From: an uncultured Holophagales bacterium
GTDB lineage: Bacteria; Acidobacteriota; Thermoanaerobaculia; Multivoradales; UBA5704
NCBI GenBank assembly: GCA_963842525.1
Contig: CAWJGT010000003.1
Coordinates: forward strand, 1,760,001-1,824,000
Length of the DNA: 64,000 nucleotides
Direction: 5' to 3'
Position 1 is the stretch's first letter. Each line of letters opens with the position of its first letter. A program made the translations under genes and the position numbers. Under the pieces are notes generated by a model. That model made no database searches. It had not been told where the DNA came from and worked only from the letters and a program-made list of their open reading frames with translations. Of this stretch, positions 14,231-61,219 are shown one piece after another.

Positions 14231-14842
14231 ATGGCCGAACCGGCATACCCCCTGGCTCTCCCCGAGGACGGAAGGAGTTGGCCTGCTCCGGGCGAGTGGA
14301 CCTATGAGGACTACCTGCGCCTGCCGGAGGACGGCCGGCGCTACGAGGTGATCCGGGGATCTCTGTACGTGGCGGCCGCTCCCAGTCTCCTCCACCAGTT
14401 CGTGGCCGGGGAGCTGTTCTCCTCGGTCCGCGACTTCGTCAAGAAGCATGCGCTAGGATTCGTCCTGAACCCGATCGAGATCCATCTGCCTGGGGGGATC
14501 ACCAGCCCTGTCCAACCGGACCTCGTGTTCCTGAGCCGGAACAAGCGGTTCAGATGGAGTGACACAAGCTTCCACGGGGTGCCCGACCTCGTGGCCGAGG
14601 TTCTCTCCCCGAGAACCCGCCGCTTCGATCAGAAGACCAAGCTTGCTGCCTATCGAGATGCCGGCGTCCCGGAGTACTGGCTGATCGATCCCCTGGCCGA
14701 GACGTTCCTGGTGTACGTCCTGAGCGAGGATCGCCGGCAGTACCTGGAGCTGTGTCGCGGCGGGCTGGAGGACACCCTGCGCTCGGCTGTATTGGCCGGA
14801 TTTCGCCTGAAGCTCGGAGACTTGTTCCCGCCGGAAGACTAG
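14231..14842 (+). CDS. Uma2 (DUF820) family endonuclease-fold protein
   Basis: WTYEDYLRLPEDGRRYEVIRG, QPDL, PDLVAEVLSP, KLAAYRDAGVPEYWLIDP; AGGAGG RBS. Confidence 0.92.
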   Translation: MAEPAYPLALPEDGRSWPAPGEWTYEDYLRLPEDGRRYEVIRGSLYVAAAPSLLHQFVAGELFSSVRDFVKKHALGFVLNPIEIHLPGGITSPVQPDLVFLSRNKRFRWSDTSFHGVPDLVAEVLSPRTRRFDQKTKLAAYRDAGVPEYWLIDPLAETFLVYVLSEDRRQYLELCRGGLEDTLRSAVLAGFRLKLGDLFPPED

Positions 14843-14855
14843 CCCCCGGGAAAAG

Positions 14856-14916
14856 CCCTCTCCCCCTCGGGATGGGCGGGTGGTGGACGCGCGGGGGAGG
14901 GGTCGGGGGAGGGGTC
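14856..14916. repeat. REP-like palindromic element (degenerate copy)
   Basis: CCCTCTCCCC...GGGCGGGTGG...GGGGGAGGGG-TC-GGGGGAGGGG just after the Uma2 stop; shares stem and loop words with the copies at 19805, 59025 and 59191. Confidence 0.5.
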
Positions 14917-15032
14917 CGGTTCCAAAACCCGCCGATTTTGTCACCGCCTTTCGACTGACTCTGTCACCTCCGCTCCCTAGTCTCGGCTCTTCGGTCCCGG
15001 CTGCTGCGGGTCCCAGGAGGGCGGTGTTTCTC

Positions 15033-15485
15033 ATGTCGATCGTCGTCGAGGAGCTGACCAAGCGTTACGGCGGACACCCGGTGGGCAACAACGTCTCCCT
15101 GGAGGTGGCGGACGGGGAGTTCTTCGTCCTCCTCGGCTCGTCGGGCAGCGGCAAGAGCACGCTCCTGCGGATGATCGCCGGCCTCACGGATATCGACGCC
15201 GGACGCATCCTCCTCCATGGCCGGGAAGTCACCGATCTGCCTCCGGCGCGGCGGGAGGTGGGCTTCGTCTTCCAGAGCTACGCCCTGTTCCAGGGGACGT
15301 CGGTCGCCGAGAACGTCGAGTTCGCCCTGTCGATCCGCGGCGTGCCGAAGCCGGTGCGGCGCGGCCGGCGGGACGAGCTGCTCGCGCTGGTCGGCCTTGC
15401 CGGGCTCGGCGGACGGATGCCCGTTGCGAAGGAGAAATCTGGTGGTGTTACGGAATCTAGGGCTCGAGTGCTGAGCGAGCTTTAG
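15033..15485 (+). pseudogene. Truncated ABC ATP-binding subunit, CysA-like
   Basis: Walker A GSSGSGKS and FVFQSYALF. Homology stops at GRMP (~15423), just before the expected LSGGQ; no Walker B. A CysW remnant lies 1 kb downstream. Confidence 0.8.
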
Positions 15486-15509
15486 AAGTGCCCGATAGGA
15501 CGGCTGCCC

Positions 15510-15881
15510 TCAGGCAGCATGGGCTAGCAGTCTGCGCATCGTATCGGGCTCGCGTTCGATTGCCTGCAGCAACGCACGCGCCGGCGCATCCGGCGAGGTC
15601 CGACGCTGTTCCCAATCCCGCAGGGTGCTGATTGGCAGTCTAAAAGCTTCGGCGAACTCGACCTGCGTCATTCCGAGCCGCTGCCGCAGAGCCTTCACGG
15701 GAGAGACTCGGCGCATCCTCTTCAGCTCCTCCTCGCCGAGCGGCTGAGCGTCGGGATCGGAAAGGGCCGCGGCCTGAACGTCCTCGTCTGTCATTGCCTT
15801 CACCCGTGCCCAATCGGTGTCGCCGCGAGGCGGCGCCTCACCAGGCTTCACGGTCACCCGCGTAGTATCGTTCTTCCTCAT
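15510..15881 (-). CDS. HTH (Xre-type) antitoxin partnered with BrnT
   Basis: TDWARVKAMTDEDV...DPDAQPL, then LRQRLGMTQVEFAEAFRLPISTLRDWEQ; overlaps the BrnT 3' end. Confidence 0.82.
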   Translation of the reverse strand: MRKNDTTRVTVKPGEAPPRGDTDWARVKAMTDEDVQAAALSDPDAQPLGEEELKRMRRVSPVKALRQRLGMTQVEFAEAFRLPISTLRDWEQRRTSPDAPARALLQAIEREPDTMRRLLAHAA

Positions 15882-16125
15882 GTCGCGTGGCCCTCCGAGC
15901 AGAGATGATGCGGCAAGTGTCGTCACCGCGCGTGGTCGTGATCACGAGTAGGACATTGCCCGCCGCTATGCCGATAACCCGTGTCCGATCCTCCTGGTAC
16001 TCAAAGCGGATATCCATCTCTTCAAGGCGGTTGGGATCTTGGATCGCTGCGATGGCGTCCACGAAATCGATGCCGTGCTTGCGGCGGTTCTCGGCAGCCT
16101 TGTCGGTGTCCCATTCATAGTTCAC
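15838..16125 (-). CDS. brnT: BrnT family toxin
   Basis: [19 protein letters not shown]...EDR...IG...[13 protein letters not shown] signature; GTG start 16125. Confidence 0.9.
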
Positions 16126-16132
16126 CACTGTC

Positions 16133-16161
16133 AGACTACTGGTTACCAGTACTTTTGTCAA
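16133..16161 (-). promoter_or_regulatory. sigma70 promoter and operator of the BrnT operon
   Basis: Minus strand TTGACA(16161-16156)-N17-TAGTCT(16138-16133); perfect palindrome TACTGGT-T-ACCAGTA at 16137-16151. Confidence 0.75.
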
Positions 16162-16167
16162 TCCCAG

Positions 16168-16330
16168 ATGTGCGTTCCCCGCGGGGGCTCGAAGCGGTCC
16201 GCAGGACCGCCAGGGTGCCCCGTGGGACCATGTGCGTTCCCTGCGGGGAAGACTCCGCAGGACCACTTCTAGTTCCCGCGGGGACTGGATCAGCGGTGAC
16301 GGGGGTCAGCAACGCATGCCGCGGGGACAC
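16168..16330. repeat. Degenerate GC-rich repeat tract, ~21-bp sub-period, 62-bp super-period
   Basis: ATGTGCGTTCCC(C/T)GCGGGG at 16168 and 16230; CCGC(A/G)GG-like cores recur about every 21 bp. Confidence 0.55.
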
Positions 16331-16373
16331 GCGGACATGCAGGAGTCGTGTCCCTCGCCACCCGCGCAAGGTA

Positions 16374-16430
16374 CCCGGACTCTCAGACCTTCGGCTCATC
16401 GCGGTCTCAGGGTACGGTCAAGAGTCGGAT
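16374..16430 (+). pseudogene. Short remnant of a response-regulator receiver domain
   Basis: Translates [19 protein letters not shown], resembling the LIAxxGYGQxxD segment of hybrid-kinase receiver domains; no flanking homology seen. Confidence 0.5.
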
Positions 16431-16462
16431 CCGGCGGATCCGGCGGCGCGAGGTGCCAGGCG

Positions 16463-16984
16463 ATTCTCGGCGGTGCCCACGGCGTGCTGGGACCCTGGCT
16501 CGCGGAGCACGACATCAAAATCATCTTCGCCGTGCCGGGAATCGTCCTGGCCACCCTGTTCGTGACCTCGCCGCTGGTGGCGCGGGAGCTGATCCCGCTC
16601 CTGCAGTCCCAGGGCAACGACGAGGAAGAAGCGGCCCTCACTCTGGGCGCCTCGGGCTGGCAGATGTTCTGGCGGGTCAGCCTGCCCAAGATCCGCTGGG
16701 GTCTGCTCTACGGCGTAGTGCTCTGCAACGCCCGAGCAATGGGAGAGTTTGGCGCCGTCTCCGTGGTCTCAGGGCACATCCGGGGGGAGACGACGACGCT
16801 GCCCCTCCACGTCGAGATCCTCTACAACGAATACCAGTTCTCGGCCGCCTTCGCCGTGGCGTCGCTGCTGACGCTGCTCGCGCTCGCCACCCTGGGACTC
16901 AAGAGCCTGATCGCGTGGAGGACGAGGTTAGACCTCACCCCCTGGCCTGCCGTGGCGCCCCTCTTGCTCAAGACCGTGAGTTAG
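16463..16984 (+). pseudogene. cysW: 5'-truncated sulfate ABC permease CysW
   Basis: [93 protein letters not shown]; N-terminal part absent. Confidence 0.88.
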
Positions 16985-17010
16985 CCTCTTGCTCGGCGAC
17001 TGGCACGCGG

Positions 17011-17759
17011 TCACTCGCGCTCGACATTTTGCTTGTTGATAACAGCGTTTGATTTGAGAAAACGGATCAACAGCGTCTCTACTTTTTCTCTGAGACTCTT
17101 GTCCTCAATCTTGACGTAAGCGGCGGTATGAACGATCGGTTGCTTGAACCAGAACTTGTCGCGTGAGAGCGAATGCGGGCCCGAATGTCCGCACCTTGGC
17201 CGACGTAGATAGGTCGCTCGCTGATGTCGTAGAGAACATAGATCCCAGCGACTGCTGGCAGATCGTTGTCAGAGTGAGGGTCAAAGTCGATAAGTTCACC
17301 CACACCCTCGATCTTGGCCTCTTCCCGAATCTCTTCCTTCGCTTCCTTTGGGATTTCCTTCCCGAGAGCGCGCTCTAAGCGGCGAATAGTCTCCTGGCGA
17401 GGATTCAGAATTCGCCCTGATTCGATGCTGTATACAGCTTGCGCGGACACTCCGGCGGCGCTGGCCAACTCAGCTACGGAGATATTCTTTTCGAGTCGCG
17501 TCTTCGTCAGCCATCCACTTAATGGAGTGGGGCCAACCGATGCCTCAGGTCCCGTCCTGCTCAAAGAAGGGTCCAGCGAAAATCCTCCGAGCACTCTCTT
17601 GAGTTCGGCCTTCTGATCTTTGGAAGGGACAACCTTCCCGATCTCCCAGTTGGAAATCGTGGCCTGCGCCACCCCAATCTTCTCGCCAAGATCTCCCTGG
17701 GTCATCGCGTTACGAACACGAGCCCGTCTCAGCTGTTCTCCGAAAGGGATGTTCGCCAT
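17011..17759 (-). CDS. Tandem Cro/C1-type HTH protein fused to a GIY-YIG nuclease domain (~249 aa), one frameshift near 17162
   Basis: HTH1 MTQGDLGEKIGVAQATISNWEIG; HTH2 SVAELASAAGVSAQAVYSIESG; GIYVLYD...IYVGQG.DIRARIRSH. Adding one base gives DKFWFKQPIV...REKVETLLI...NAVINKQNVERE* (stop 17011-17013), supplying the expected Glu and Asn. Confidence 0.8.
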
Positions 17760-18183
17760 GTTTTATATTCTCACTATCTGGAATAATTAGGAAACCTATT
17801 ATCGGACCGACTCCCGACGCCTTATACTCACCTCGCCGGCCGGGTAAGCTTCTCGTCGGCTCGTTGAGAGTTGCTGAGTTCAGTTCCAAGTCTTTCTGCA
17901 TCTGCAGTTAGGAAAGCATACTCCCAGCGGCAGGAAGGCGTCAAACGCGGCCGTGCGGGTCGTGTAATCCCCTCGCTGGAGTCTTCTATGCCACTTCGAG
18001 AGAACAGCGCATCTCTCTGACTCTCTGGGGTTGGGCCGGAGGCTCACATCCCGGGCTGGGTAATCCTCTCCAGCGTGGCGCGGAAGCGCCTCGCCGGGCA
18101 CTCGCCCGAGTCTCGCTGCCTACAGGCGCAAAGTGCCGATTCGTTAACCAGTGACGAGCTTCTCGTTCCCGGCGATTTCGGGC

Positions 18184-18213
18184 TTGACAGGCGGGTGCGA
18201 GCATTCCTAGAAT
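18184..18213 (+). promoter_or_regulatory. Near-consensus sigma70 promoter upstream of the 180-aa orphan gene
   Basis: TTGACA(18184-18189)-N18-TAGAAT(18208-18213). Confidence 0.7.
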
Positions 18214-18324
18214 GGAGGCGGTATCGAGGCAGTAACTCGGGAAAGGAGGTGACCGGGCAAGACCGAAGGAAGCGCACAGTCGTTCCGTAGCGTTCTCGCC
18301 GGCCGCGTGGTCTCGCGGTCAATC

Positions 18325-18400
18325 CACAAGCGGCCCGGAAGTGAGGTGGCACTCACCCCCGGACCTGACCCAACAGGGAGGTAGACTCCATGAAGGGCTC
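18325..18400 (-). ncRNA. Candidate cis-antisense small RNA (~75 nt) covering the RBS and start of the 18390 ORF
   Basis: Extended -10 TGCTATCCT on the minus strand (18414-18406) inside the ORF; a 14-bp hairpin at 18332-18365 whose three A.C mismatches become G.U pairs only in minus-strand RNA. Prediction only. Confidence 0.4.
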
Positions 18401-18932
18401 TGAGAAGGATAGCATCCCGTCTGTCCCCGAAGTTTCGTCTTCGCAGTACATTCCCAATCCCCCGAACGCGTTCACCTCGGAGTTTCTGAAGCGGGTGGGC
18501 GAGCGCGATGAGCCTTTCATGGCGGGTGAGGCCGATATGGCCGGGCCGTGGCAGCTCGAGGAGATCCCCGGCTCCGGCTGGGGTCTGTTCCGCCTCGGCG
18601 AGGATTCGGCCCGGCGGTTCCGGCCGTTCGCGGTGTTCCGGCGGAGGTCGGTGGCTCTGCTCGCCGCGGCGATTCTGCCTGGCACAGGCCGCGACCCGGC
18701 ATTCCGGCTGCAGCTCGATCCGGAGCTGGCCGGCTACGCGGTGGTGGGCAGCGGCGAGCTCGTCGGTCATCTGGCCCTCTATGACGACCGGGTGATCGAA
18801 GCGCTGCACGTCGCCGAGATGCTGGTGCGGTCTCCCGAGTCGCTGGCCCGGCTGCTGGAGGCTGCGGGGGCGATCGCTCTGGAACGGACCGGAGCGATCC
18901 TCGATCGGCAACTCGCCGGACAGGAAGCCTGA
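18390..18932 (+). CDS. Hypothetical protein (180 aa), no family recognised
   Basis: GGAGG RBS at 18377-18381; protein-like composition; low-complexity N-terminus followed by globular-looking sequence. Confidence 0.75.
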   Translation: MKGSEKDSIPSVPEVSSSQYIPNPPNAFTSEFLKRVGERDEPFMAGEADMAGPWQLEEIPGSGWGLFRLGEDSARRFRPFAVFRRRSVALLAAAILPGTGRDPAFRLQLDPELAGYAVVGSGELVGHLALYDDRVIEALHVAEMLVRSPESLARLLEAAGAIALERTGAILDRQLAGQEA

Positions 18933-18943
18933 CCTCAGTTTCG

Positions 18944-19268
18944 GTCCCGAGACGCTGCTCCAGCGTGAGCTGACACTGGTTTTGCGGAGCGCGCGCTGGT
19001 CCAGTGTCCCGGGACGCTGGTCCAGCGTGAGCAGACGCTGGTTTTGCGGAGCGCGCGCTGGTCCAGTGTCTCGGGACGCTGGTCCAGCGCGAGCAGACGC
19101 TGGTTTTGCGGAGCGCACGCTGGTCCAGTGTCCCGGGACGCTGCTCCAGCGTGAGCAGACGCTGGTTTTGCGGAGCGCACGCTGGTCCAGTGTCCCGGGA
19201 CGCTGCTCCAGCGTGAGCAGACGCTGGCTTTGCGGAGCGTACGCTGGTCCAGTGTCCCGGGACGCTGG
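18944..19268. repeat. Tandem array of 5.25 x 62-bp palindrome-rich units
   Basis: Units start at 18944, 19006, 19068, 19130, 19192 and 19254; consensus GTCCCGGGACGCTG(G/C)TCCAGCGTGAGCAGACGCTGGTTTTGCGGAGCGC(A/G)CGCTGGTCCAGT. Confidence 0.97.
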
Positions 19269-19328
19269 GTCGGGCCTTCAGCTCATCGCACCTTGGCCCT
19301 TCCCCCCAGACGTCCAGTGAGGCTGGCT

Positions 19329-19562
19329 TCACACCTTTTGTGCCACCTCTGCGATTGACTTTTTTGTGATGCTTTGTATCTCAGCTCGCACGGCACGGTC
19401 AGGGAGTGCCTCCGCGATCTCGTGGATCCCCAACAAAAGCGACATCTGGTGAAGCGGGTTGTTTGGATCCACGATCTCTTCCCAGTTGGGGACGAAGTGG
19501 GTAATGAAATGATAGTAGGAAGAGAACAGGCTCGGGGTAAGCTTCTTTTTGATTGCTGCCAT
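19329..19562 (-). CDS. Hypothetical protein (77 aa)
   Basis: AAGGAG RBS before ATG 19562; MAAIKKKLTPSLFSSYYHFITHFVPNWEE...; lower GC than its neighbours. Confidence 0.6.
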   Translation of the reverse strand: MAAIKKKLTPSLFSSYYHFITHFVPNWEEIVDPNNPLHQMSLLLGIHEIAEALPDRAVRAEIQSITKKSIAEVAQKV

Positions 19563-19641
19563 GTTGGTCTCCTTAGCCACTGTGTGTGAAAATGCCTAAC
19601 GGCGCTTGGCATTCAGATGCGGGAGCAGCGACGATCCCGCG

Positions 19642-19687
19642 ATCTGTATTGATATGGGCGGCCCATCTGTATTGATATGGGCGGCCC
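19642..19687. repeat. Perfect 23-bp tandem duplication
   Basis: ATCTGTATTGATATGGGCGGCCC twice (19642-19664, 19665-19687). Confidence 0.95.
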
Positions 19688-19804
19688 AGGCCGGCTGAAC
19701 GTTACATACTGCCCGGGTCCGCCATCCTCCTCCGAGGCCGCCGGGTGCCGCCGGCAGCTTCCTCGGGATGGAGGTATGCCACGACGGCCACGGCAGCGTT
19801 ACAC

Positions 19805-19841
19805 CTCCCGGTCGGTGGGAGGGCGATGGGAGAGGGGGGCC
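19805..19841. repeat. REP-like element (partial) just downstream of the NRPS stop
   Basis: CTCCCGGTCGGTGGGAGGGCGATGGGAGAGGGGGGCC aligns with CTCCCGGGCGGGTGGGAGTGCGGATGGGAGAGGGGGCC at 59197-59234. Confidence 0.65.
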
Positions 19842-19859
19842 CGGAAGTTGGCGTGCAGC

Positions 19860-61219
<41,360 letters not shown>

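Follow-up and report, generated by a model that had tools for sequence, protein, structure and literature searches.

A predicted cis-antisense RNA module at the translation start of a lineage-specific protein family in Thermoanaerobaculia

The window analysed here is a 64,000-nucleotide stretch of the genome of an uncultured Holophagales bacterium (Acidobacteriota; Thermoanaerobaculia), positions 1,760,001 to 1,824,000 of contig CAWJGT010000003.1, and all coordinates below are those of the window. A plus-strand coding sequence (CDS) at 18390–18932 encodes a 180-residue protein of a large family without assigned function, designated family A, and comparison of the start of this gene with its relatives points to a conserved antisense RNA module lying opposite the ribosome site and start codon. 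A sequence-only reading of the window had taken the gene for an orphan under the control of such an RNA. The orphan status was wrong: a word-indexed search gives 322 homologues at E ≤ 1e-3, a profile search gives 705 representative clusters and the genome itself (9.95 Mb) holds 19 family A matches (18 by tblastn). The named homologues are all hypothetical proteins of Thermoanaerobaculia metagenome genomes.

The loci compared comprise 80 from public genomes, the paralogues of the window's own genome and 40 loci added later (L100–L139). Start-anchored counts refer to 83 upstream stretches, loci having been excluded where there was no in-frame ATG, where too little upstream DNA was available or where the N-terminus was absent from the match. 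The main alignment (A2) has 90 rows; 99 loci yielded 92 starts, from which two exact duplicates were removed, and eight matches without an ATG, one with a short upstream stretch and eight without the N-terminus were dropped before that stage. A second set (alignment A4) consists of 35 matches of the covariance model R1 from further loci, 33 of them distinct.

The near-consensus promoter described in the sequence-only reading is present upstream of the gene on the plus strand (18184–18213), with TTGACA at 18184–18189, an 18-nt spacer and TAGAAT at 18208–18213. It scores 11 of 12 in a promoter scan, which returned two sites over 3 kb against a shuffle mean of 0.5, and 176 nt separate the end of its -10 element from the ATG (18390), in keeping with the ~175 nt read earlier. 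The site aligns among five paralogues, and TTGAY-N16-18-TAnnnT occurs upstream in 72 of the 83 homologous loci, against 3/83 on the opposite strand of the same 270 nt. With its 5' end inferred from the -10 element, the predicted mRNA would carry a leader of ~170 nt (18220–18389, plus strand); across loci the distance from the end of the -10 element to the ATG has a median of 126 nt and a range of 41–197 nt. Just ahead of the start codon, the ribosome site GGAG (18377–18380) and a pairable CTCC (18386–18389) flank the bases gtaga on the plus strand, the element with its ATG occupying 18377–18392. The small stem that had been read at 18377–18389 is confirmed, and its GGAG/CTCC pairs form helix 2 of the module alignment. 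The ATG is kept in all 83 anchored loci, which is partly a consequence of how the starts were picked.

Two further features of the leader were noted. Copies with a long leader carry a GGAGGTG box (18245–18251, plus strand, ~140 nt 5' of the ATG in the window), which is found in all five aligned paralogues and, by reading of the sequences, in many, not all, loci. A small upstream open reading frame (ORF) following this box was considered and ruled out, as by reading there is no start codon in range in the window copy. Directly after the sense promoter, two to three copies of GGCGTAA-like words occur in several rows that lack the module and in some module-bearing loci such as L065 and L076, and the window copy has GGCGGTATC and GGCAGTAAC at this position. 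These words could be an operator or an RNA 5'-end motif.

On the minus strand, a cis-antisense RNA of ~78 nt with two stem-loops is predicted at 18322–18399, and this copy scores 79 bits with covariance model R1. Read from 18399 to 18322, the 78 nt fold with -40.1 kcal/mol (z -2.95; 2 of 200 shuffles as good), compared with -29.9 kcal/mol (z -1.39) for the plus strand of the same segment. The 5' stem-loop (18368–18398, minus strand) is complementary to the plus-strand ribosome site, the start codon and codons 2–3. The 3' stem-loop is a terminator-like 14-bp hairpin (18332–18365, minus strand) with arms at 18332–18345 and 18352–18365; it has three mismatches on the plus strand (C.A, A.C and A.C), and all 14 pairs form on the minus strand, just as the sequence-only reading had claimed of a hairpin that pairs fully only in an antisense transcript. 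It is followed by a T-rich tail (18320–18331, minus strand), which reads GCTTGTGGATTG in the window copy and GTTTTCGTTT in the consensus. The predicted antisense -10 element is TATCCT with a TG extension (18406–18414, minus strand); this extended -10, TGCTATCCT, runs backwards from 18414 to 18406 inside codons 6–9 as read earlier, and it proved to be conserved among homologues. An Rfam cmscan of 17000–20000 at E ≤ 10 returned nothing above the gathering threshold in 18184–18420, the best match near the start being SorX on the minus strand (18326–18410; 17.1 bits, E = 1, compared with a gathering score of 46.6).

The comparative evidence for structure is strongly strand-specific. RNAalifold applied to A2 in the antisense orientation gives two elements, a 5' stem-loop and a 3' hairpin, with -9.75 kcal/mol, compared with 0.0 kcal/mol and no structure for the identical columns in the mRNA orientation. 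In the 5' stem-loop the complement of codons 2–3 pairs with a stretch upstream of the anti-ribosome-site sequence, and the GGAG/CTCC stem is included. Over the 24 pairs of A2, the 1993 alignment cells comprise 1392 Watson–Crick, 416 G.U and 185 other combinations in the antisense orientation, against 1392, 53 and 548, respectively, in the mRNA orientation. The 33 distinct rows of the second set behave in the same way, with 166 G.U cells in the antisense orientation and seven in the mRNA orientation. A strand-neutral purine–pyrimidine fold likewise favours the antisense orientation by 556 to 139, compared with ratios of ~1.1–1.5 to 1 in control windows. Scores against dinucleotide shuffles at the 83 loci average -3.83 for the minus strand and -2.48 for the plus strand; the minus strand is the lower at 71 of them, and 73 (minus) and 55 (plus) loci have z below -2. 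Coding-region controls give z of ~0 on both strands.

Covariation supports the same two elements. In A2, 90.7% of the 1993 cells are paired, compared with 84.1% in column shuffles, none of 500 of which reached as high a value, and 39–54% when the partners are slid. Double changes are seen in 19 of the 24 pairs. In the 3' hairpin (helix 3) 92.2% of cells are paired, and 12 of its 14 pairs show double changes; for helices 1 and 2 of the 5' stem-loop the paired fractions are 89.4% and 88.0%, and 7 of their 10 pairs show double changes. The second set has 96.9% of its cells paired (96.7% in helix 3), compared with 78.6% in shuffles, and double changes occur in 16 of 24 pairs. Strand-specific covariation among aligned homologues had been named beforehand as a check on the sequence-only reading, as had a conserved reverse TAnnnT, and both were found.

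The reverse -10 element lies within coding sequence, where its conservation can be followed base by base (numbering with the ATG at 0). The motif ANNNTA at +16, which is the reverse TAnnnT of codons 6–8, is present in 74 of the 83 loci; position +16 is A in 79 of them all, +20 is T in 75 and +21 is A in 78. C is found at +23 in 76/83 and A at +24 in 42/83, which together amount to a TG extension in about half of the copies; T at +9 is found in 62/83. The third codon positions +17 and +20 are T in 59/83 and 75/83, respectively, against a background of 6.6% T at third positions in codons 31–150 of the same genes, and C predominates at the third positions nearby, +8 (66/83) and +23 (76/83). The amino acids encoded at these codons vary. 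Because T at these third positions is far above background and the amino acids vary, the counts indicate that the minus-strand TAnnnT is under nucleotide-level selection. Of the 35 rows of the second set, 33 retain the first reverse T, 34 the A and 34 the last T, and in A2 the base 7 nt after the reverse hexamer is most commonly A (65/90 rows).

Hairpin and reverse -10 element tend to be kept or lost together, as 77 of the 90 rows have both, eight have neither and five have one alone. Family A loci that lack both include L029:7463-7568, L039:7464-7569, L067, L068, L074 and L075. Measured from the predicted start to 8 nt past the stem, the length of the RNA in 80 rows has a median of 77 nt and an interquartile range of 76–78 nt. 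The 9 nt after the stem contain at least five T in 63/90 rows, and a run of at least four T follows the stem in 55/90, the overall T frequency being 0.25.

The module is multiplied in the genome of the window and extends beyond family A. The two closest paralogues share DNA homology with the window copy from 18160 and 18207 to 18935, covering the promoter, leader and CDS and nothing beyond, and two further paralogues align from 18325, where the hairpin starts. Model R1 finds 23 places in the genome; the ORFs read downstream of 22 of them belong to family A (13), family B (seven), family C (one) and family D (one), and the one remaining match is partial, with no ORF read. Many family C genes in other genomes also carry the module. 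Among 121 sampled genomes of the class the module was found in five, with 3–22 copies each: the window's own genome, all three others of its family and one genome of a second family in the same order. The module belongs to one branch of Thermoanaerobaculia-type Acidobacteriota. Searches of plasmid and phage collections with tblastn gave no matches.

The target regions of the copies have diverged, the longest run shared between two copies in the own genome having a median of 7 nt and reaching at least 14 nt in 13 of 231 pairs. A family-wide trans network of antisense RNAs was considered and is weak in view of this median. The drift of the target regions fits cis action at each locus, and the antisense RNAs would for the most part be locus-specific. 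The comparison suggests that structure, promoter and register are maintained and that the sequence can otherwise drift.

The proteins behind the module give few leads. The family A protein is acidic and hydrophilic, with an isoelectric point (pI) of 4.94 and a grand average of hydropathy (GRAVY) of -0.12, and its AlphaFold2 model (mean predicted local distance difference test score, pLDDT, 76.4) has a disordered N-terminus, a β-sheet and two long C-terminal helices. The window protein has no match to Pfam at E ≤ 1, to NCBIfam or to PADLOC. The best E was 0.57 in a comparison with PDB sequences and 0.46 with Foldseek against the PDB, and VIA reached a best Z of 4.7 over residues 100–147 only; none of these is a match. 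The sequence-only reading had held that the protein resembles neither SymE nor small membrane toxins, and this view stands: it is no small membrane peptide, and no SymE-type (AbrB-like, SpoVT-AbrB) family appears among 35 family A members in a Pfam scan at E ≤ 10. An Imm61/TNT-antitoxin-like lead from the protein atlas scored 0.81–0.82, below the level at which it would count as more than a lead, and PF15598 is absent from the same number of members (35) at E ≤ 10. Five database members of family A (P0258, P0260, P0272, P0318 and P0330) are 341–399 residues long and contain two profile-matching stretches, being tandem-fused double forms.

Family B proteins have 111–122 residues, one of them being truncated, the family C member has 136 and the family D ORF of the own genome has 96. 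All four families are acidic (pI 4.4–4.9). The hhalign homology probability among A, B and C is 0.3–3.6%, and families B, C and D have no Pfam match below E = 0.19. The family C model is helical (pLDDT 75.2) with no Foldseek match. Families B and C have 7 and 167 homologues, respectively, confined to the same kind of genomes. The first 8–10 codons of A, B, C and D have a common pattern (M, R/P/S, D/E/Q-rich, S/T, P-rich), because these codons belong to the DNA module.

No recurring partner gene accompanies family A: clustering of neighbouring ORFs at 88 loci returned shadow ORFs and, in a subset, ordinary-looking neighbours. At some family A loci (clusters in 13–18 loci) the neighbours were read by eye from sequence as rimI/tsaB-like, DUF465-like, pssA-like and asd-like; on this reading, one orthologue occupies a conserved housekeeping synteny. 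In the window, the divergent upstream gene (17079–17759, minus strand) encodes two XRE-type helix-turn-helix (HTH) domains and a weak C-terminal GIY-YIG match (E 6e-4, below the Pfam cut-off), and such a gene is not adjacent to the other paralogues. Further upstream, in 14231–16981, a BrnT-type toxin gene (15841–16266, minus strand) and an HTH gene (15513–15926, minus strand) stand between an ABC-transporter ATPase match (14880–15482) and a permease match (16232–16981), as if the pair had been inserted into a transporter operon; the gene for a Uma2 nuclease is located at 14231–14839.

Several repeats follow the gene. A tandem array of a 62-bp unit (18944–19267; 5.2 copies, 95% matches) begins 12 bp after the stop codon, outside the homology between paralogues, which stops at 18935. 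Roughly 19 further sites in the genome have arrays of the 62-bp unit. On the plus strand two units fold very stably (-78.1 kcal/mol, z -6.6) and, by reading, each unit contains a stem with TTTT behind it. An exact 23-bp direct repeat in two copies (19642–19688) adjoins the start of a long ORF at 19677. The 34-bp sequence at 19805–19838 recurs at dozens of places on many contigs with 90–100% identity, on both strands and sometimes as close inverted pairs, and looks like a small dispersed repeat.

The reading favoured here, to which we assign a probability of about 60%, is that the gene start constitutes a lineage-specific, portable cis-antisense RNA module acting on the start of translation. 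A strong sigma-70-type promoter would give an mRNA with a leader of roughly 100–180 nt. A second promoter inside codons 6–8, pointing backwards, would consist of the -10 TAnnnT, extended by TG in about half of the copies, and has no clear -35; the RNA of ~77 nt made from it would terminate at a GC-rich hairpin, behind which a T-run usually stands. This RNA would be fully complementary to the mRNA from about -68 to +9, its 5' stem-loop being complementary to codons 2–3, the AUG and the ribosome site and its 3' stem-loop being a terminator. Pairing with the translation initiation region would most likely block ribosome loading, mark the duplex for cleavage or do both, and convergent transcription may contribute interference. 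The sequence-only reading had proposed silencing by a ~75-nt antisense RNA over the ribosome site and start; the RNA it predicted is backed by the comparative evidence (median 77 nt), and its production, its pairing with the mRNA and its repressive effect are what we infer to be most likely.

Several points weigh against this interpretation or temper the counts behind it. No convincing antisense -35 was found, as the sequence-only reading had also conceded, and by reading there is none at a fixed distance among the loci; only about one copy in two has the TG extension. In the window copy and, by reading, in most family B copies, the hairpin is followed by a weak run of T. The choice of starts favoured a nearby GGAG, which may make the start-anchored columns look sharper. 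The loci are not independent samples, being relatives and paralogues, and the shuffle counts and the Fisher test overstate independence; alignment A4 was fitted to the structure model, and some of its rows may coincide in genomic position with seed rows. The plain comparison of folding energies, in which the minus strand is better at 76/83 loci, was rejected as sole evidence and replaced by shuffle-based z-scores and counts of pair types; the gap is partly a composition effect, because the coding-region window shows the same bias (74/83).

The stems are also 72.5% canonical in the mRNA sense, leaving room for a role in the mRNA, and this figure, together with the mean plus-strand z and a GGAG/CTCC stem that would hide the ribosome site, is what can be said for an element acting in the leader itself, either by sequestering the ribosome site or as a protein-bound structure, with no separate antisense RNA. 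ANNNTA at codons 6–8 would in that case reflect, for example, low structure or the use of rare codons near the start, or mark a site where a protein binds, and GC-rich genomes do often enrich A/T at early codons. An explanation along these lines is nevertheless unlikely, since the cells that are not Watson–Crick favour the minus strand by ~8 to 1 in A2 and by 166 to 7 in the second set, and RNAalifold finds no consensus structure in the mRNA sense. The motif is moreover sharp, with +16, +20 and +21 fixed and the third positions +8 and +23 mostly C, and ANNNTA is lost together with the hairpin. An element acting at the DNA level, such as a strand-specific hairpin of single-stranded DNA, a site for recombination or mobility, or what remains of one end of a small mobile element spreading a promoter plus start, would account for 3–22 copies per genome, for the joining of the module to protein families without detectable mutual homology and for close-paralogue homology that sets in shortly upstream of the promoter and ends immediately past the stop codon. 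The copies are, however, diverged paralogues with compensatory changes and not near-identical repeats, and they keep a constant register with the ribosome site, ATG and reverse -10. No terminal repeats were noticed, though no search was aimed at them, and there is no transposase-like family among the recurring neighbour clusters and no plasmid or phage match, so that this explanation appears highly improbable.

Another explanation, put forward in the sequence-only reading, is a type I toxin–antitoxin system, with a 180-residue protein that would be toxic when made and the antisense RNA as its antitoxin. The layout is that described for symE/SymR (PMC1891008), and type I systems are described as typically lineage-restricted and multiplied on chromosomes (PMC5367252). 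The copies of the module are likewise chromosomal, lineage-restricted and multiplied, and the mRNA has a near-consensus promoter yet a guarded start site. Some weight is left to this explanation because of the layout and because such chromosomal multiplication is typical. The protein nevertheless shows no similarity to a toxin family in Pfam, NCBIfam or PADLOC and is acidic and hydrophilic, and part of the loci stand among housekeeping-like ORFs (the clusters read by eye in 13–18 loci). The module also fronts families B, C and D, at least two of which lack detectable homology, and plasmid and phage collections hold no matches; a toxin–antitoxin role is rated as quite unlikely.

As far as the comparisons go, the antisense module is real, conserved and apparently undescribed. 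Full-text literature searches (Thermoanaerobaculia antisense RNA; Acidobacteria type I toxin–antitoxin; Acidobacteriota small RNAs or RNA motif) returned nothing on it among the titles listed, regulatory RNAs have hardly been explored in Acidobacteriota, and no Rfam family covers the element. A wider suggestion, offered tentatively, is that a portable 'antisense-guarded start site' cassette subjects a whole group of lineage-specific proteins to a single type of RNA switch. The cassette may consist of the ribosome site, the ATG, the first ~8 codons, the backward -10 and the terminator hairpin, and may front families A–D in 3–22 copies per genome; one set under its control could be a multi-family type I toxin–antitoxin-like or stress-released group. 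If the RNA is real, the module would be a new antisense RNA family, well defined and strongly supported by comparison, a rare antisense-plus-start-site module common to protein families without detectable homology, and a handle on three large uncharacterized families that have multiplied in these soil bacteria. It would also be a test case for predicting antisense RNAs from strand-asymmetric G.U pairing together with promoter motifs held at synonymous sites.

Antisense RNAs at translation starts are familiar from IS10 RNA-IN/RNA-OUT, ibs/Sib and ldr/Rdl, in which nearby convergent promoters produce an antisense stem-loop that pairs with the ribosome site and start of its target and which occur in several copies per genome. 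The proteins behind the present module are much larger and hydrophilic, and lineage, RNA sequence and structure differ. IS200 tnpA and art200 resemble the module in that, as reported (PMC4513863), a cis-encoded small RNA opposite the 5' untranslated region is combined with mRNA secondary structure in a multicopy element, both affecting expression of the downstream gene. The module genes differ in not being transposases, and the copies are diverged paralogues of host protein families; the predicted antisense start lies inside the CDS, and no mobile-element ends were noticed, with no search aimed at terminal repeats. A close parallel in layout is symE/SymR of Escherichia coli (PMC1891008), where the antisense promoter is inside the CDS and the RNA covers the translation start region. 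Unlike SymE, the module protein has 180 residues, is acidic and has no SymE/AbrB-like or other family match, and the module is present in 23 copies in its genome, fronting four protein families.

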